A stretch of DNA of 10,323 bases from Candidatus Brocadiia bacterium (GTDB lineage: Bacteria; Planctomycetota; Uabimicrobiia; Uabimicrobiales; JABWCH01). Below the pieces are notes generated by a model. That model ran no database searches and was not told the DNA's origin. It saw only the letters and a program-made list of their open reading frames with translations. Each line of letters opens with the position of its first letter. Position 1 is the first letter of the stretch. The DNA is taken from assembly GCA_013359215.1 (NCBI GenBank), contig JABWCH010000189.1:1-10323 (forward strand). Reading direction: 5' to 3'. The translations under genes were made by a program, and so were the position numbers. Shown in pieces: positions 72 through 7,845 of this stretch.

Positions 72-99
72 GGGGAAAATTTTTACAAAAATTTTCCCC
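72..99. repeat. Perfect inverted repeat with 12-13 bp arms (GGGGAAAATTTT / AAAATTTTCCCC, loop ~ACA), immediately preceded by GGGGG-TTT-GGGGG. Possible hairpin or terminator of an upstream unit, or a palindromic protein-binding site.
   Basis: Read directly: positions 72-84 are the reverse complement of 87-99. It lies in the 264-bp non-coding stretch upstream of the CheW-like gene. No clean U-tract follows on either strand (+ gives AAAUAAAAAUC; - gives AAACCCCCUUUAAAAACUUUU), so a terminator role is uncertain. Confidence 0.4.
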
Positions 100-264
100 A
101 AATAAAAATCTCTTTGCGTAACTCCTATAAATAAGTGTTAAGCTATAAGTAGTTGAGCTTTGTATTGTATCCGCCTTGTAGAACCAGCCTGCTGCTTGAA
201 GTTTCATAAGAGTTGACAGCGTTACGGGCAAAGCCCCTGGTATTCTTCAAAATGAGAAAAAGTT

Positions 265-777
265 ATGACAAACCCTATCAGCCTTCTTACCTTTAGAATT
301 TCCCAACAAAGACTAGCACTCCCTATTGATAAAGTCCGAGAAGTCATACGGAATGTGCCTGTTATGCCAGCACCTGCCTGGACAGGGCTTTTGCATGGGA
401 TCATCCACATTCGGGGGATGGTAATTCCTGTTATGGATTTGCGTCTGGTTTTAGGAAGTGAGCCTTCCATAGATACCAGCAAAACAAGGATCGTCATTGT
501 AGAGATGCTAGAAAGATCTGCTGGTTTTATCGTAGATGAAGTAGACGATATTATACCCCTAAAACAAGAACAGCTCATTCCCCTCTCTTCTCTTTCCTGG
601 GAGAAAAAAACGGCTGTGCTTGTGGGTATAGCCCAGATAGAAGAACAAATATATCTTGTCCTGGATATGGACTATCTGATTCGAGAAGAAGAACGAAAAG
701 TATTTCAAGAACTTTGTTTAAAATTACAACAAAATCCTATGGAAATAACAAAAAAAGTAGAAAAGGAAAAACTATGA
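265..777 (+). CDS. CheW-like domain protein (170 aa, single-domain chemotaxis coupling/scaffold protein family)
   Basis: The translation aligns along its length with canonical CheW. Compare [21 protein letters not shown]...[20 protein letters not shown] with E. coli CheW [21 protein letters not shown]...[51 protein letters not shown] with [32 protein letters not shown]; and the C-terminal [11 protein letters not shown] with MLILVNIEKLL. It starts at ATG 265 with a weak SD-like GAGAAA 6-12 nt upstream. The stop TGA at 775-777 overlaps the next gene's ATG. Confidence 0.8.
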   Translation: [170 protein letters not shown]

Positions 778-2432
778 CAGATGAAATCAAAAAAAAGGCA
801 GCTCGTATGGTCTTCCAGGAGCAATTAATGCAAAACGCCATAGGGCAGGGTGTATCCCATGAAATTAAGCCTGGCGTACAGCAAAAGCCTTCTGAAAAGC
901 TTGCCATGAATATCCCAGAGCAGAAGACATCAGAAGAACTACAGCAAGAAAAGGCAGGGATGAAAATCCGCGAAACTGGCTGGTTGCTCTGGCGAACAGT
1001 AGTCGTTCCTCCCAACGCTTATGTCGTACACACAAGAAGAGGACAGAATAAACCCGTTACTCTGGGGTTAGGGCAGAGCTTCCGCTATTACCCCCGCATC
1101 GACAGCTACCTTGTTGTTCCTGCTGCACTACAAACCATAGGAATCGTTGCTCAGGGAGTAAGCAAAGAAAAGCAAGGAATCAGCATCCTTGCTTATGTCC
1201 AGTGGCTTATCAGCAACTTTGCTATTGCTTACCAGCGTCTTGATTTTTCTGATCCAAAAGATCCCATGGGAATTGTCAATGCTCAACTCAGAGAGCAAGC
1301 AGAAGCTGCGATCAAAGATAAGATTTCTACCATGAGCGTAGAAGAAATTCTTACAGACAAAGCCCCTATCATTGAAGAATTGACACAAAGAATGAAGGCT
1401 GTAGCCGAAGGCTCAATACAAGGAGATCGACTGAGTGGAATGGGGGGATTGGGGCTTCATATCGTTACAGTTCAGATCAAAGAAGCATACGTCTGCTCTC
1501 AGCATCTTTGGGAATTTCTCCAGACGCCTTTCCGAAATGAAAAGGAAAGAGAAGCACGCCTAAGCCGATTGCGGGTAGAAGAAGAAATAAAACAGCAAGA
1601 ACTGACAAATCTCAAAAGAATCGAGTCAGGGCAGGCGCAGACAGAGGCAGATATAGCCAAATTTAAGGCAGAAAAAGAAAGCGAGTCTTTTGAGGTTGTG
1701 GTAAAAGAAAGGCTCAAAAGACAAGAAAAAGAAAGCGAAGAGAAGCAAAAGATGGTTGCTCTTTATGAGCAAACAGAATTGCAAGGAAGGCTTTCCCAGA
1801 AGAAGCTACAGGAAAATGAACTCCAGACAAAGCAAGAATTGGAAATTTTAAAAATACGCCAGGCACAAGAGTTCGAGCTAGAGAAATCTAAGCTGGAAGC
1901 ACAACGATATACAGAAGAAAAGCAAATCAGCGTGGAAAGCAAAATCCAGGCATCTTTATGGGATGCAAAGCTGGAAGAAGAAGATCTAAAAAATAAGCTG
2001 GTATGCTTAGAAAATCAAAAAACTTTGCAAGCCAGGCAGCATGAAGTGGAGCAAGAAAAGAAGAAAAATGATCTTGCCTTAGAAAAACTGGAATTAGAGC
2101 ATAAGATTGCTGCTGAAGACAAAGAATTCCAGGCAGCCCAGCTTCACGAAGAACAAACCAATCGGCTGAAGAATGCCAATAAAGAAGAAGAAATCAAGCA
2201 GCAAAAGCTCTTGCAGGAAATTGCCAATGGCCTTTCTTCTGAATACCTTGTAACAAAAATGATCGAAACACTCCCAGATCTCGCCAAGGCATTGCCCGAA
2301 ATCAAAGAACTCAAAACTTTGCAAATCTCTTCAGAAGGAAAAGAAAGCAATCTGCTCTTTGGGTCTATCTCGAAAATTTTGGCAATAGCGAACGCCTTGG
2401 GAGTCAAAGTTCCTGGCTACCAAGAGCCATGA
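774..2432 (+). CDS. Flotillin-family protein with an SPFH/band-7 domain and a long flotillin-type coiled coil (FloT/YqiK-like, 552 aa). It lacks the N-terminal membrane hairpin and carries a ~75-aa hydrophilic N-terminal extension.
   Basis: The six-frame ORF opens at TTG 714, but the first in-frame ATG is at 774 (MTDEIKKK). It is preceded by AAGGA at 763-767 with a 6-nt spacer and forms an ATGA overlap with the upstream stop, so I call 774. MSVEEILTDKAPIIEELTQRMKAVAEGSIQGDRLSGMGGLGLHIVTVQIKEA matches B. subtilis FloT [40 protein letters not shown]. The ~200-aa E/K/Q/A-rich heptad region and the C-terminal MIETLPDLAKALPEIKELKTLQISSEG match FloT MIVKMLPEYAKQAAAPLSNIDKITVVDTGG. Where FloT has a transmembrane segment before its TKYRTAGPDEALIVT, this protein has hydrophilic sequence before WRTVVVPPNAYVV. 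Confidence 0.8.
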   Translation: MTDEIKKKAARMVFQEQLMQNAIGQGVSHEIKPGVQQKPSEKLAMNIPEQKTSEELQQEKAGMKIRETGWLLWRTVVVPPNAYVVHTRRGQNKPVTLGLGQSFRYYPRIDSYLVVPAALQTIGIVAQGVSKEKQGISILAYVQWLISNFAIAYQRLDFSDPKDPMGIVNAQLREQAEAAIKDKISTMSVEEILTDKAPIIEELTQRMKAVAEGSIQGDRLSGMGGLGLHIVTVQIKEAYVCSQHLWEFLQTPFRNEKEREARLSRLRVEEEIKQQELTNLKRIESGQAQTEADIAKFKAEKESESFEVVVKERLKRQEKESEEKQKMVALYEQTELQGRLSQKKLQENELQTKQELEILKIRQAQEFELEKSKLEAQRYTEEKQISVESKIQASLWDAKLEEEDLKNKLVCLENQKTLQARQHEVEQEKKKNDLALEKLELEHKIAAEDKEFQAAQLHEEQTNRLKNANKEEEIKQQKLLQEIANGLSSEYLVTKMIETLPDLAKALPEIKELKTLQISSEGKESNLLFGSISKILAIANALGVKVPGYQEP

Positions 2433-3179
2433 TTATTTTTTTTCCAGGCAGATAAAGCTTTCGAGTATTGTTTTGGCTAAATGATGGAATTTTTCTTTGA
2501 ACAAGGGCTTGTTGAAGCCTCTTTTCCACTGGAATGTAAAAAGCTCATCGGAAATCACAACAATCGCAGCTAAAGCAACTCCATGAAATCGGGCAACGGT
2601 ATATAGCGCACTGATTTCCATTTCAACTGCATATATATTAGATTCCTGGTATTTTTTTACTTTCCACACCAGCTCTCTATAAGGCGCATCCGTAGTCCAA
2701 ACCATACCTTCCTGGAAAGAGATACCTTTTTTTTGAAGAATATCGGCTAGTGCAGATATGGCTTTTGTGTCTGGCATAGGCTGTTTCTGATCTGGAAAAT
2801 AGTGCGATGAAGTGCCTTCTTCCGAAAGACTCCCTGTTGCTAAAAGATAGTCCCCAATCAAAAGCCCTGGCTGCAAAGAGCCTGCACAACCTAGCGCAAT
2901 AATATTCTTTGCACCAGAAGCAATCATCTGCTCCAAGAAAAGGGCAGCCGCAGGAGAGCCTGTGGCTGGCCCAACACAAGAAAAGTTTGTATTCTCCAGG
3001 ATTTTGCCTAAAGAAAATTTTTTTTCTTGGTGTCCAGGAAGAAGTTTCCTTAAGATTTCCCAGGATTCGTTTCCCAAAGCCAGAATTGCATTCTGAGGGA
3101 TTTTTTTTTGAGGAACAAAGGGAAACACAATCGATCTTTGTTCCTCAGAGGAATGGCTATCCATTCCAGATTTTTTCAT
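2433..3179 (-). CDS. Nucleoside phosphorylase family-1 enzyme (PNP/UDP fold), MTA/SAH-nucleosidase-like, possibly futalosine-hydrolase-like; 248 aa
   Basis: Motifs match E. coli MtnN: GCAGSL (MtnN GSAGGL), IGDYLLATG (VGDIVVSDE), AVEMEISALYTVA (AVEMEATAIAHVC), VVISDEL (VVRAISDV). The start is either ATG 3179 or ATG 3164 (MDSHSS), and neither has a good SD. Its first 8-23 nt overlap the 3' end of glgP, consistent with co-transcription. Its stop TAA at 2433-2435 abuts the flotillin stop at 2430-2432. Confidence 0.75.
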   Translation of the reverse strand: MKKSGMDSHSSEEQRSIVFPFVPQKKIPQNAILALGNESWEILRKLLPGHQEKKFSLGKILENTNFSCVGPATGSPAAALFLEQMIASGAKNIIALGCAGSLQPGLLIGDYLLATGSLSEEGTSSHYFPDQKQPMPDTKAISALADILQKKGISFQEGMVWTTDAPYRELVWKVKKYQESNIYAVEMEISALYTVARFHGVALAAIVVISDELFTFQWKRGFNKPLFKEKFHHLAKTILESFICLEKK

Positions 3180-5613
3180 TATAATTTTTTATAGAAACAT
3201 CTGCGCTGAATTTGCCCATTCGGGATATATTGACAATTGCCTTTCTGTTCCATTCGTCCTGGTTGCGGTAGAGCTGGTCTACCTTTTCTTTGCATTCTAC
3301 ATAGGAAGCAAAATCTTCCAAAATATAGTATGGATCTCCCTCCTCAAACAACGAATGTAAAAGATCTTTAAACAGATCAGAGGAATCTTTGCAAAGCTCT
3401 CCATTTTTAATAAAATCAATGGTTTTCTTTAGAAGGGGATTTTTTTCATAGATTTCCCAGGAATTATAATTTTGGATCTTTTTTAGATGATTTATCTTTT
3501 TTAAATCCATTCCAAAAACAAAAACATTCTCTATAGAAAGCTCCCGAACCATCTCTATGCTTGCCCCATCCATAGTGCAAACCGTATGTGCGCCATTTAA
3601 GGCAAACTTAAAGAGGCTTGTGCCTGATGCTTCTGTTCCTGCTGTAGAAAGCTGTTCGCTTACATCAGCAGCAGGTATTATTTTTTCTGCCAGGCTGACT
3701 TTATAATTGGGCAGAAAGATTACCTGTATTTTTTTGCTGGCAACAGGGTCTTTTTTTATTTTTTCTGCCACAATATGAATCATTTTAATCAAGAGCTTGC
3801 CTCTCTGGTAATCGGGGCTGGATTTGCCTGCAAAGATAAAAGCGTATGGTAAACGCGCTAAATCAGGATTTTCCTGAATCCTGATATATAAAGAGATTAT
3901 ATGCAGCAGATTGAGTAGCTGCCTTTTGTACTCATGTATCCGCTTTGCCTGCACATCGAAAACCCAACTGGTATCCAGGGTAGTATGCAGCTCTGAAAAA
4001 ATAAAGTTAGCAAGCCTTTTCTTATTAGACAGCTTAATTTGTTGAAAAAGATCTCGGAATCCTTCATCCTGAGAATGAACTTCCAGTTCTCTGAGCTGTT
4101 CCATATCGGTAAGCCATCTATCCCCAATTCTACTTATGATGAGTTCGCTTAGTTCTGGGTTTGCTACCATCAGCCATCTTCTTTGTGTAATACCATTTGT
4201 GATGTTGATGAATTTTCCAGGCTGAAGTTTACAAAAATCAGGTAATGCCGTTTTTGTCAAGAGTTCTGTATGCAGCGATGATACGCCATTTATTTTGTGA
4301 GAGCCTACTGTAGCAAGGTGTGCCATACGGATTTGCTTTTCTTGCCCTTCTTCTACAAGGCTCATGCGACGTAAACGATCTGTTTCTCCAGGGAATGCAA
4401 TATTTACATGATCTAAAAAACGCCTGTTGATTTCATAGATGATTTGTAGATGCCGAGGCAAAAATCTTTGGAAAAAATAGACTGGCCATTTTTCCAATGC
4501 TTCTGGCATAAGAGTATGGTTTGTGTATGAAAAGGCTTTTTCTGTTATAGACCAGGCCATTTCCCAAGGGAGTTTTTTTTCATCTACTAATAGCCTCATA
4601 AGTTCTGGTATTGCCAGAGAAGGATGGGTGTCGTTAAGCTGGATGGCGACTTTTTCATGGAATTGACTATAGTCTTTTCCATTTTCGCTTTCAAACCTCT
4701 TGATAATATCCTGGATGGAGCAGGCAGCGAAAAAATATTGCTGCTTGAATCTTAGCTCTTGCCCTGCAAGGTATTTTTCTCTTGGATAGAAAACGTATGT
4801 TAGCTTTTCTGCTTCAATTTGATGGATAATGCTTTCTGTGTAATTAGACTGCTGCAAATCAGAACGGTCTAAAAATTTAATAGATTTGGATTCCCATAAA
4901 AAAAGGCTGTTGACTGTTTTAGAGTTATATCCTGTAATGAAAATAACATAAGGCAATCCTAAAACTTCATAGCTTGGCTGCCAGATAAATTCTGTACGGC
5001 CCCCTATGTTTTGTACTGCGACTTTGCCTCCAAATTTTACAGCAAAGGCATGGTCGTGCTGTGGAATACACCAAATGCTTTGGTCTTTAATCCAATCTTC
5101 AGGACGAGCTACCTGGTTACCATCTACGATGGTCTGGGCAAAAGTTCCATAATGATATCGAAGCCCATATCCCATGCATGGTATTTTCTGGGTGGCTATA
5201 GAATCTAAAAAGCATGAAGCTAAACGGCCAAGCCCTGCGTTTCCCAGGCCAGGCTCATCTTCAGCAGCACAAATTTTTTCCCAATTCAAAGGACTTCCTT
5301 TGTGGCTTGTTAGCGATTTTTGTATGCTTTTTTGAATCCCAAGATTGATCATATTGTTTACTAAAAGCCGCCCAGGTAAGTATTCTGCGGATAAATAGTA
5401 TAGCCTCTTGACTTTATTTTCTTTATGTTTGTATTGTGTTTTTACCCACATAGGTATGATCTGGTCTTGGAGCAACATCATCAATGCCCTGCAATAATGC
5501 CTTTCCTGAGCATTGGATTTATCCCAAAAGGCGTATTGGAGATGGTCAGAAAATTGTTTCTGGATATCGTCCATACTTAATTTTTTTTCAGAATCAAGAT
5601 AATAATCTTTCAT
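3157..5613 (-). CDS. glgP: Glycogen/maltodextrin phosphorylase (GT35 family, alpha-glucan phosphorylase, PLP-dependent); 818 aa
   Basis: Hallmark matches to E. coli GlgP: YYLSAEYLPGRLL (YYLSMEFLIGRTL), EPGLGNAGLGRLASCFLDSIAT ([22 protein letters not shown]), and the PLP-lysine region EASGTSLFKFALNGA (EASGTSNMKFALNGA). The ORF track opens at 5712 (MNYHKF..., no SD, overlapping the ABC gene). I place the start at the internal ATG 5613 (MKDYYLDSEKK) because a strong SD, AGGAG at 5624-5628, sits 10 nt upstream. That start also gives the ~72 residues before YYLS expected for GlgP. Confidence 0.9.
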   Translation of the reverse strand: MKDYYLDSEKKLSMDDIQKQFSDHLQYAFWDKSNAQERHYCRALMMLLQDQIIPMWVKTQYKHKENKVKRLYYLSAEYLPGRLLVNNMINLGIQKSIQKSLTSHKGSPLNWEKICAAEDEPGLGNAGLGRLASCFLDSIATQKIPCMGYGLRYHYGTFAQTIVDGNQVARPEDWIKDQSIWCIPQHDHAFAVKFGGKVAVQNIGGRTEFIWQPSYEVLGLPYVIFITGYNSKTVNSLFLWESKSIKFLDRSDLQQSNYTESIIHQIEAEKLTYVFYPREKYLAGQELRFKQQYFFAACSIQDIIKRFESENGKDYSQFHEKVAIQLNDTHPSLAIPELMRLLVDEKKLPWEMAWSITEKAFSYTNHTLMPEALEKWPVYFFQRFLPRHLQIIYEINRRFLDHVNIAFPGETDRLRRMSLVEEGQEKQIRMAHLATVGSHKINGVSSLHTELLTKTALPDFCKLQPGKFINITNGITQRRWLMVANPELSELIISRIGDRWLTDMEQLRELEVHSQDEGFRDLFQQIKLSNKKRLANFIFSELHTTLDTSWVFDVQAKRIHEYKRQLLNLLHIISLYIRIQENPDLARLPYAFIFAGKSSPDYQRGKLLIKMIHIVAEKIKKDPVASKKIQVIFLPNYKVSLAEKIIPAADVSEQLSTAGTEASGTSLFKFALNGAHTVCTMDGASIEMVRELSIENVFVFGMDLKKINHLKKIQNYNSWEIYEKNPLLKKTIDFIKNGELCKDSSDLFKDLLHSLFEEGDPYYILEDFASYVECKEKVDQLYRNQDEWNRKAIVNISRMGKFSADVSIKNYNEKIWNG

Positions 5614-5623
5614 TATGATTTCA

Positions 5624-5628
5624 CTCCT
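5624..5628 (-). promoter_or_regulatory. Shine-Dalgarno (AGGAG) for glgP
   Basis: The minus-strand sequence reads CCTATAGGAGTGAAATCATA-ATG, giving AGGAG with a 10-nt spacer to ATG 5613. It sits in an 85-bp gap after the ABC ATPase stop. Confidence 0.5.
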
Positions 5629-5698
5629 ATAGGGAAAAATACCGAGTGGAAATTTTTGGTTGGAATTATGGATTAGACAAGCTTCGGTTGTCCAAAAT

Positions 5699-6391
5699 TT
5701 ATGATAGTTCATATTCAGACAACAAAGCTGGATTGTCTAAAAGATCTTGAATTTTTTCAAAAATGAAAAGATGATGGTTGTGCAACACAAAAGCTCTTGT
5801 ACAAAGAGATGTTATGTACTCATATTCATGAGTAGCGATAATCTGTGTGCATTCTAATTTTGAAATGTAGCTATTTAATTCCTTTTTAGACCTTACATCC
5901 AGGCTGGAAAATGGCTCATCTAAAACCAATATGCCTGGATTTAGGCTAAAGGCTGTAGCAAGCAATAGCTTCTTTTTTTCTCCTGTGCTTAGGCAATAAG
6001 GGTTTTGATGGATATATCCTAAAAGGCCAAAAAAAGACAGGGATTCTTCTATGATTTTTTCTATTTCTTTTTGTTCTTTTCCTTGCTGCAAAAGACCTAA
6101 AGCTATTTCAGAATATACTGTGTTCATAAGAATTTGTTCATCAGGATAGCTAAAAATAGTATACATATCCGTTGGATAGTTCTTCTTCATTTCTTCAAAA
6201 TAAAATTGAATGCTTCCTTTGTATGGTGTAATGAGCTGGTTTAGGGCTTTTATCAAAGTGGATTTTCCGCTGCCATTTTTCCCTAAAAGTGCGATTCTAT
6301 CTTTTGCTTCAATGATAAACGAAATATTTTCTAAAATAGCCTCAGATTCATATCTATAGCTTGCATTTTTAGCGCAGATAAGGCAATTCAT
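5699..6391 (-). CDS. ABC-type ATPase nucleotide-binding domain, EcfA/CbiO-like (230 aa), with no membrane or permease component adjacent
   Basis: Walker A LLGKNGSGKST, signature-like LSTGEKKKL, Walker B ILVLDEPFSSLD and H-loop IIATHEY are all present. FSYPDEQIL resembles the EcfA Q-loop block FQNPDNQ but has Ser in place of the conserved Gln. ATG 6391-6389 overlaps the upstream gene's TGA at 6390-6388 in an ATGA arrangement. Confidence 0.85.
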   Translation of the reverse strand: MNCLICAKNASYRYESEAILENISFIIEAKDRIALLGKNGSGKSTLIKALNQLITPYKGSIQFYFEEMKKNYPTDMYTIFSYPDEQILMNTVYSEIALGLLQQGKEQKEIEKIIEESLSFFGLLGYIHQNPYCLSTGEKKKLLLATAFSLNPGILVLDEPFSSLDVRSKKELNSYISKLECTQIIATHEYEYITSLCTRAFVLHNHHLFIFEKIQDLLDNPALLSEYELS

Positions 6392-7845
6392 AGTGGCTTA
6401 TCGCTAATCCTGAGTTTTTCTCTATGCAAAAAACAGTTATGAAGACGCAAAGCGTAAAAAGGGCATTCTTCATATATGCAGTTGTCTACAGGGCAAAAAC
6501 GATCAGGGATTTTTTTATTCATATCCCATTCTGTTAGAGCAATCTCAAGAATGAGTTCAAATGGCATCAAGGAAGGCTCTCGGTGGGCTTTAGGCGACCC
6601 ATGAACCAAAAGCTTTTGCGATTGATGCAAAAACCACCCAACGACTTCCCCTACTTCATAAAAAGGTATTTCGGAAATAGGGGCTGCAATGGTATATCCA
6701 GAGAGCATTTCCGCTATGCGAAGTTTCGCAGCCAATCGCCTGAAGGTAAAATTTTTCAATTTCCCTAGCTTATTGACAGAAATGCTAATATGCAAACGTG
6801 TTTCATCTTTATAAATGACAATATCTGCTTTATCTTGAAAACGTGCAGCCTTCACTACAAGAGCACTTTGAGCTTCTATTGCTACTATTTTTATTTTATC
6901 CAGTTGATAGATTTTGCTTTTGGTTTTATATTCCACAAGGGCATCCTGCCAGCTTTTTTCATAGCTCACAATACAATCGAAAAGCAAAAAAATAGGCTTA
7001 TAGATGCCTTCAGGGTTGTTCCTGTATAGATGGTAAAAACCTTTTAGTATATTGGGAAGGCCAACTATCTGGTCTTTGGATGTGTTAGCTTGAAGAAAGT
7101 AGCTTCTTGGCTTAAGGTTTTTTACAAAAGATATGATTTTTTGGAATTCTGGAATAGACTCAATTCCCTTGCTTTGAACAAAATGATCAAAGTATTTTTC
7201 TGAAATGTACATCTCTTCTGTAAGCTTGCATTGAAGATGCCTTTCGCATAGATACAATGCCATGATTTTTTTTAAATTGAGATTTTCAAAAATTTCTTCT
7301 TGCATTCCAGGATTCAGCTCATGCCCCAAAAGGGAAATGCCAGAAAACGAAGCTTCAATAGATTGGAATACTTCTAAAAAAAATTGGGTCATTCCAAGAA
7401 AATTATTTCCAAAATGGATGAGTGCTCCACGAATAATGTTGGGCAAAGCTGTTGTATGATCTATAGGGTTTTTAGATCTTAAAGATTGGCCTGCACTGTC
7501 TTGTAATCGCGTAAACTCTAAAATATCTTTTAGCGATTCTTTGTTCTCAACGCCTAAATCCTGAGCTACAAGATTTGATGCAGATAGAGTCAGCTTTTCT
7601 TTTTCCAAAGTAATTCCGTCAGGATGCGTATCTAATTTTCCGCCTCCAATATCTACAGCCAGGATGCCTTCCTTTTCTAATTCTTCGGGTGTTTTATTGT
7701 CTGGCAAACGGCCAGCGGGATAAAAGCAAAGCTTTGCCTTGGAAATACCAGGGTAACGCTTTTCCCCATACTGTTGCAAAAGATAACAACAGAGCATGGC
7801 ATCCAGATCGGGATATTCATGAGTGATGATTGTGTGAAATTCCAT
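6388..7845 (-). CDS. Uncharacterized 485-aa soluble protein with an N-terminal DHH-phosphoesterase-like motif set (divergent) and a C-terminal Cys cluster
   Basis: IITHEYPDLDAMLCCYLL matches DHH motif I of NrnA-type enzymes (hHxxPDxDAxGS). The downstream ILAVDIGGGKLDTHPDG could be compressed motifs II and III, with DTH where DHH is expected. No canonical DHHA1 GGGH is visible. The C-terminus reads CPVDNCIYEECPFYALRLHNC (C-x4-C-x4-C-x9-C). The only in-frame start before the upstream stop at 7873-7875 is ATG 7845, and it has no SD. The gene is coupled by ATGA to the ABC ATPase. The DHH assignment is by eye only. Confidence 0.65.
   Translation of the reverse strand: MEFHTIITHEYPDLDAMLCCYLLQQYGEKRYPGISKAKLCFYPAGRLPDNKTPEELEKEGILAVDIGGGKLDTHPDGITLEKEKLTLSASNLVAQDLGVENKESLKDILEFTRLQDSAGQSLRSKNPIDHTTALPNIIRGALIHFGNNFLGMTQFFLEVFQSIEASFSGISLLGHELNPGMQEEIFENLNLKKIMALYLCERHLQCKLTEEMYISEKYFDHFVQSKGIESIPEFQKIISFVKNLKPRSYFLQANTSKDQIVGLPNILKGFYHLYRNNPEGIYKPIFLLFDCIVSYEKSWQDALVEYKTKSKIYQLDKIKIVAIEAQSALVVKAARFQDKADIVIYKDETRLHISISVNKLGKLKNFTFRRLAAKLRIAEMLSGYTIAAPISEIPFYEVGEVVGWFLHQSQKLLVHGSPKAHREPSLMPFELILEIALTEWDMNKKIPDRFCPVDNCIYEECPFYALRLHNCFLHREKLRISDKPL

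Follow-up and report, generated by a model that had tools for sequence, protein, structure and literature searches.

A cheW-like gene paired with an SPFH gene within one shallow clade of Planctomycetota

The locus and its two gene products

This study was concerned with a two-gene unit on a contig of an uncultured organism that NCBI labels as a Candidatus Brocadiae/Brocadiia bacterium (Planctomycetota). The contig comes from a metagenome-assembled genome (MAG) and was analyzed over its entire length of 10,323 nucleotides (nt), which is referred to here as the window. The unit lies at positions 265-2432 of the plus strand and consists of a gene for a CheW-like protein (265-777, 170 amino acids (aa)) followed on the same strand by a gene for an SPFH/Band_7 protein (774-2432, 552 aa, HUU50_14090). 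A preliminary description of this DNA had read the two genes as a module in which a CheW-type adaptor works with a flotillin scaffold. That reading is partly supported by our analysis, in that the domains, the overlap of the genes and the orphan position of cheW were borne out, whereas deep conservation of the pair and the placing of cheW in a slot normally held by an NfeD gene were not. The pair looks like a local operon arrangement, not a new signalling system. The adjacency is limited to one shallow clade (78-88% aa identity) and is missing in one of its four lineages.

The stop codon of the cheW-like gene (TGA, 775-777) shares the four letters ATGA (774-777) with the start codon of the SPFH gene (ATG, 774-776), and a Shine-Dalgarno-like AAGGA (763-767) lies within the cheW coding sequence, 6 nt before that ATG. 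Both the overlap and the spacing had been noted preliminarily and were confirmed directly in the sequence. The 4-nt ATGA is the commonest same-strand gene overlap in bacteria, so its presence is not unusual in itself. Nine Logan assemblies, obtained from separate sequencing runs of at least three projects, are 99.94-99.99% identical to the window and contain the identical overlap. The overlap is absent from the orthologous pairs of relatives, in which the spacer is 13 nt (L110) or 25 nt (L107), and any coupling through ATGA would be confined to the lineage of the window strain. The relatives carry AAAAGGA or AAAAAGG at similar distances inside these short spacers. One polymorphism was found close to the junction, at position 771 (C/A), 3 nt before the SPFH start, where it changes the last CheW residue (L170 or I170). 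Eight of the nine same-strain assemblies have A at this position, and the window and L017 have C. Six of the nine differ from the window at position 771 alone, and L017, L016, L019 and L021 each have one mismatch to the window at another site.

The 170-aa product consists of a single CheW domain and a short charged C-terminal tail. The domain (aa 7-142, nt 283-690) matches Pfam CheW (PF01584) from profile position 2 to 137 of 138 with a score of 101.9 bits against a curated cut-off of 23.5, so the earlier assignment to CheW holds at full length. The protein also aligned end to end in phmmer with the solved CheWs 2qdl, 1k0s, 3ur1 and 2ho9 (E 7e-18 to 1.6e-13), and its matches to solved CheW structures as a whole reached up to E 3e-13. 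Its orthologues in close relatives are 81-87% identical to it in aa sequence, and their N-termini, MTNSISLLTF among them, back the ATG at 265 as the start. The NCBIfam CheW equivalog NF007903 was not reached (56.5 bits, cut-off 260). That model is tuned to enteric CheW, and failing its cut-off therefore says little.

The 552-aa product matches Pfam Band_7/SPFH (PF01145) with 56.2 bits against a cut-off of 23.6, which upholds the assignment to this superfamily. The N-termini of its orthologues (MTDEIKKKAARMVFQEQ, MDENKKKAARMVFQEQ, MEEKKTKPARKVFQEQ and MNEKKSKAARMVFQEQ) support ATG 774, and thus the longer open reading frame (ORF) from TTG 714 does not represent the real SPFH start. A sequence search of the PDB with this protein returned HflC only (E about 5e-8). 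An AlphaFold2 (AF2) model built on 30 homologues was of moderate confidence, with a mean predicted local distance difference test (pLDDT) score of 65.7. The model begins with a helix at aa 2-24 and a low-confidence (disordered) linker, which are followed by the SPFH alpha/beta domain (aa 77-265 by Pfam, nt 1002-1568), itself predicted with moderate confidence. After the domain the model predicts one very long helix (aa 251-486, nt 1524-2231; about 235 residues), broken at about 302-312 into helices of aa 251-301 and 313-486, with pLDDT values of 80-93 over roughly aa 330-480. Two further helices are predicted at the C-terminus, one of them moderately hydrophobic (aa 524-541, nt 2343-2396). In Foldseek the model matched every SPFH family, with a probability of 1.00 each for flotillin, HflC, erlin, prohibitin, stomatin and major vault protein. 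The longest of these alignments, to eukaryotic flotillin-1/2 (9bq2, 9l3g), ran over 462-494 columns and covered most of the model.

The preliminary description had named this protein a member of the flotillin family. No transmembrane (TM) segment was found in it, the highest 19-residue Kyte-Doolittle mean being 1.46 (aa 526-546), and its first 65 residues are polar, with no N-terminal hydrophobic anchor or hairpin. In addition, Pfam Flotillin (PF15975) was matched neither by the window protein (E<=0.01) nor by any of 30 members of its family (E<=1). For these reasons membership in the FloT/YqiK flotillin family is not supported. A flotillin-like architecture is a fair description of the modelled protein, given that flotillins supplied the longest structural alignments, and the likeness applies at that level only. 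The N-terminal helix and the core are conserved throughout the family, with or without an adjacent CheW. A motif in this N-terminal region that resembles the tip of a methyl-accepting chemotaxis protein (MCP), EQLMQNA, was considered and rejected. The protein has no MCPsignal Pfam match, the helix is also conserved where there is no CheW neighbour, and the spacing of the motif presumably differs from that of receptor tips.

Relatives and surroundings of the pair

Four close lineages were compared: the window (W), L107-L109 (A), L110 (B), and a fourth (C) represented by L001-L003 for cheW and by L006-L008 and L023 for the SPFH gene. In lineage A, 25 nt separate a CheW gene (81% identical to that of the window) from a downstream SPFH orthologue of 78% identity. 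In lineage B the CheW is 87% identical, and the next gene, which begins MDENKKKAARMVFQEQLMQNA, lies 13 nt behind it. The adjacency is therefore not unique to one genome, and in the three paired lineages the genes are always on the same strand, at spacings of -4, 13 and 25 nt. On L107, the SPFH orthologue departs abruptly from all other orthologues over its final 20 or so codons (2372-2432, IVTHGPLAGDYRDAPVEPDA), which is probably an artefact of the contig end.

Lineage C has both genes intact but separated. Its cheW (P0124, 83% identical) is followed 27 nt downstream by hpnH and not by the SPFH gene. Its SPFH gene (P0002, 81% identical) is preceded by a gene for phosphonopyruvate decarboxylase and by a non-coding stretch of about 340 nt that contains a repeat resembling a miniature inverted-repeat transposable element (MITE). 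L001 and L023 were assigned to one organism by their shared samples, by a repeat exclusive to those loci and by similar GC content. In lineage C, no counterpart of any of the seven other window genes lies close to cheW or to the SPFH gene. Uncoupling of the genes is not accompanied by lower aa identity. For example, CheW is 88% identical between B and C, and the SPFH protein is 81% identical between W and C and 78% between W and A. A bootstrapped neighbour-joining tree of the CheW clade (about 165 aligned residues) groups W, A, B and C at 92% and joins C to A (59%) or to B (23%), and no alternative split above 15% places C at the base. For this reason the pair was probably lost in C, and the tree suggests a single origin and a single loss.

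Two side observations concern lineage C. The MITE-like element is about 220 nt long, has 30-nt terminal inverted repeats and a core of CCACAGAGGCACAGAGAAC, and lies 5' of both cheW and the SPFH gene (L001 9705-9923; L023 about 5745-5937; the first 25 nt of L006-L008). Neither the window nor any of the other 110 loci contains it. The hpnH gene (L001 10523-11554; TIGR03470, 509 bits) is a radical-SAM gene for an adenosyl-hopene transferase. A link to hopanoids and microdomains was considered and remains an unsupported curiosity. The PNP_UDP_1 gene of the window has only weak HpnG-like similarity (40 bits against a cut-off of 187), and no synteny is shared.

Outside this clade the two genes were found apart. 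In GCA_964585305.1 the homologues of CheW (68%) and of the SPFH protein (52%) are on contigs 34 and 13, respectively, and in sample 3300019216 the two homologues are also on different contigs. Thus, conservation of the adjacency extends to lineages A and B and not to lineage C, the deeper relatives or the 80 SPFH-family genomes described below. It was seen neither beyond close relatives nor as an independent recurrence.

The SPFH protein belongs to a large family, with more than 1,800 matches at E<=1e-3 among 8,000 candidates scored. Its hosts include Chloroflexota, Spirochaetota, Desulfobacterota, Bacteroidota, Gemmatimonadota, Sericytochromatia, large sulfur bacteria and Planctomycetota. Neighbouring genes were surveyed at 80 genome loci of the family from many phyla, with up to 6 kb of flank each. 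A CheW hidden Markov model (HMM) found nothing across these flanks, and clustering of all neighbours gave no family common to more than four of 81 loci. A Pfam scan of 72 upstream neighbours found no family in more than three, and NfeD in at most one. The family is thus a stand-alone gene, without a conserved CheW or NfeD neighbour. NfeD partners have been found for the SPFH subfamilies 1, 2 and 5 only (PMC2636767). The proposal that cheW occupies an NfeD slot therefore has no basis in this family.

Two further features of the family were noted in passing. Many of its hosts are filamentous, gliding or very large bacteria, an impression gained from record titles and not from statistics. Examples are Chloroflexota (Herpetosiphonaceae, Roseiflexaceae, Caldilinea, Oscillochloris), Desulfonema magnum, Beggiatoa, Thiomargarita, Moduliflexus and Spirochaetota. 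Also, 21 of 30 members have a weak Pfam Flavoprotein (PF02441) match inside the SPFH domain (about aa 74-138, best E 6.7e-4), which is probably spurious.

The CheW-like protein, by comparison, belongs to a small clade restricted to Planctomycetota. In an exhaustive HMMER search over 1.84 billion representatives, only about four had at least 50% identity to it, and the next matches were multi-CheW-domain proteins at 34% or less. No che genes were found nearby in ten contexts of this clade. In particular, none lies within 10 kb of cheW in L001, L012, L103 and L104, and none was called in L106, for which the downstream 10 kb were available. Judged by gene neighbourhood only, cheW is not encoded with CheA or chemoreceptors. 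In the relatives that have an upstream flank cheW is a true orphan. Upstream of cheW, L001 encodes a 1,029-aa HEAT-repeat protein, of which the L107 contig covers the C-terminal 72 codons only, at 75% identity. The 10 kb upstream of cheW in L001 hold this HEAT-repeat gene and metabolic genes.

The gene downstream of cheW changes within the clade. It encodes the SPFH protein in the window, L107 and L110, HpnH in L001, and an 1,800-aa tetratricopeptide repeat (TPR) protein in L106, and in L103 and L112/L113 nothing follows on the same strand. In L012, L104/L105 and L111, which form a sister subclade (bootstrap 81%), the product of the downstream gene is about 2,500 aa long and has a predicted signal peptide and four central and two C-terminal predicted TM helices. 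The copies lie at L012 10538-18016, L104 9937-17688, L105 1602-5744 and L111 682-5667, with a gap of 42-80 nt to cheW in L012, L104 and L105. They are 37-45% identical between lineages, so the pairing of cheW with this gene spans a deeper divergence than its pairing with the SPFH gene. The 2,500-aa protein has no Pfam or PDB similarity, nor is it similar to the SPFH protein.

In the window itself the cheW-like gene is preceded by a non-coding, ORF-free stretch (1-264). This stretch contains an inverted repeat at 69-102, with arms of 16 nt each at 69-84 and 87-102 (TTGGGGGAAAATTTTT / AAAAATTTTCCCCAAA), a 2-nt loop and 94% complementarity. All nine same-strain assemblies terminate at window positions 99-107, the 3' edge of this palindrome, which probably interrupts de Bruijn assembly and conceals the gene 5' of cheW. 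The gene upstream of cheW in the window strain is unseen because the window and these assemblies end no more than 264 nt before cheW. A blastn comparison of 1-264 with the regions upstream of cheW in L107, L110 and L001 gave nothing meaningful, and promoter-like matches in this stretch were no commoner than in shuffled sequence.

At the other end of the unit, a consensus scan found a weak terminator-like hairpin and T-run across the SPFH stop (2414-2445, plus strand), which is a pattern match only. A tightly packed string of minus-strand genes with overlapping ends (2433-7845) converges on the SPFH gene. It encodes a 485-aa protein without a Pfam match, an ABC ATPase, a glycogen phosphorylase (965 bits) and a PNP_UDP_1 phosphorylase. 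The gene for the last of these (2433-3179, minus strand) abuts the SPFH stop with its own stop and leaves no spacer. No gene of the string is syntenic with the loci of the relatives, and a Pfam scan of the window found no gene for NfeD, MCP, CheA or CheY.

Operon arrangement or functional module

We consider it most probable (roughly 0.6) that the pair is an operon peculiar to this lineage, whose two genes function independently of each other. The two genes would have been joined once, in the ancestor of the shallow clade, after which three lineages would have retained the pair and one would have separated its genes while keeping both intact. In the window strain the pair is most probably co-transcribed, and ribosomes that end on cheW could reinitiate at the overlapping SPFH start with the aid of AAGGA. 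Such translational coupling, suggested by the letters at the junction, may apply to the window strain alone. By analogy with its superfamily, the SPFH protein would assemble into a large oligomeric scaffold, a ring or cage that sits at the cytoplasmic membrane or peripheral to it. By a similar analogy, the CheW-like protein would serve as a coupling adaptor for partners whose genes lie elsewhere.

Several observations weigh against functional independence. The pair persists in three lineages without any other surrounding synteny, and a linkage that outlives its local synteny is mild evidence of selection on that linkage. The spacers are always short and the genes always on the same strand. In addition, the CheW clade is never found beside che genes, and its sister subclade is tightly linked to a large membrane protein. 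Thus, the partner of this CheW may not be a chemoreceptor array. The same observations speak for a clade-specific functional module, in which the CheW-like adaptor would bind the SPFH scaffold, for example through the N-terminal helix or the long coiled coil. We regard such a module as possible but doubtful. It would gain from the sharp isolation of the CheW clade, from the sister subclade, which suggests a recurring theme of an adaptor plus a big scaffold, and from the SPFH protein's lack of its own membrane anchor, for which it may need a partner. On such an account, to which we lend equally limited credence, the SPFH protein would be recruited to a membrane signalling platform or would organize CheW into one, and operon linkage, with translational coupling in the window strain, would keep the stoichiometry matched. 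However, lineage C split the genes and kept both intact with undiminished conservation, deeper relatives that have both genes keep them apart, and more than 1,800 members of the SPFH family manage alone in phyla without the CheW clade. No feature of the SPFH protein is specific to the members linked to CheW, and the overlap is not conserved. A literature search for CheW together with flotillin or SPFH proteins also found nothing relevant that links them. A wider proposal is that the orphan CheW proteins of this Planctomycetota-only clade work as adaptors independently of chemotaxis and dock onto large scaffolds associated with the membrane, here an anchor-less SPFH cage and in the sister subclade the 2,500-aa multi-pass protein. 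This we consider improbable. If it were true, the cheW-SPFH operon would mark a previously unknown way of organizing or tethering an SPFH microdomain.

The remaining explanations are weak. That cheW closes an ordinary che operon, the rest of which lies just outside the window on its 5' side, would fit the early end of all assemblies of this strain, where the upstream gene is unseen. Yet cheW is preceded by 264 non-coding nt with a strong palindrome, the upstream gene in L001 and L107 encodes a HEAT-repeat protein, and the flanks of the other relatives, given above, are free of che genes, so this is very unlikely. An assembly or binning chimera of two unrelated loci was a reasonable concern in a short MAG contig, the more so as the closest long-contig relatives to be examined first had the two genes apart. 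It is refuted, and would be hardly credible, given the same junction in nine independent assemblies of at least three projects and the same gene order in two other species-level relatives (L107-L109 and L110). A recent fusion, in which the CheW tail would derive from the SPFH leader (blastn breakpoints at 723 and 759), was also ruled out, since homologous tails occur in P0122 and P0123 and since the gene order is shared by L107 and L110. Lastly, an anti-phage defence system was dropped when the PADLOC models matched neither the CheW nor the SPFH protein.

The reading as an operon of independent genes carries its own lesson: close linkage of two genes, even to the point of overlap, can be a shallow feature of one lineage. 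Should the pair prove functional after all, a chemotaxis-type coupling domain would for the first time be connected with an SPFH/flotillin scaffold, and this would suggest how an anchor-less SPFH protein reaches the membrane or an array. The comparison also defines two uncharacterized groups. One is a large SPFH family of many phyla that is NfeD-less and anchor-less and has a helix of about 235 residues. The other is the small clade of orphan CheWs in Planctomycetota, in which the gene that follows cheW differs from subclade to subclade.

Comparison with known systems

The SPFH protein may be compared with the flotillins FloT/YuaG and YqiK (SPFH2), with which the modelled protein shares a length of about 510-550 aa and an SPFH domain followed by a long helical or coiled-coil region. 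Unlike these flotillins, it has neither an N-terminal anchor or hairpin nor PF15975, and its closest sequence match among solved structures is HflC and not a flotillin. FloT and YqiK also have the NfeD partners YuaF and YqiJ, whereas the window contains no NfeD partner gene and NfeD is not a conserved neighbour of the family. In this respect the family resembles the NfeD-less subfamilies SPFH3, 4 and 6-12 (Hinderhofer et al. 2009, PMC2636767), which likewise have no NfeD or conserved operon partner.

The highest sequence and structural matches were to HflK/HflC, to the stomatin, prohibitin and erlin cages and to the shoulder domain of major vault protein, all of which share an SPFH fold followed by a helix. 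The common theme of this superfamily is an oligomeric cage or ring (titles of PDB 7vhq, 9bq2, 8rrh and 9z7u). The window protein differs from these in its much longer predicted helix (about 235 residues) and in having no TM helix. Its gene also has no partner paralogue or FtsH context.

The CheW-like protein may be compared with the CheWs of chemosensory arrays, such as those of T. maritima (1K0S/3UR1) and E. coli (2HO9). It differs from them in lying outside any che cluster, in belonging to a Planctomycetota-only clade with no more than 34% identity to other CheW domains, and in a downstream neighbour that varies within that clade (SPFH protein, 2,500-aa membrane protein, TPR protein, HpnH or none). 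It resembles them in being a single CheW domain of the usual length, in its full-length Pfam match and direct sequence similarity to solved CheW structures, and in keeping the core motif G-x-x-x-(L/I)-R-G-x-(V/I)-x-P-V-x-D-L-R.

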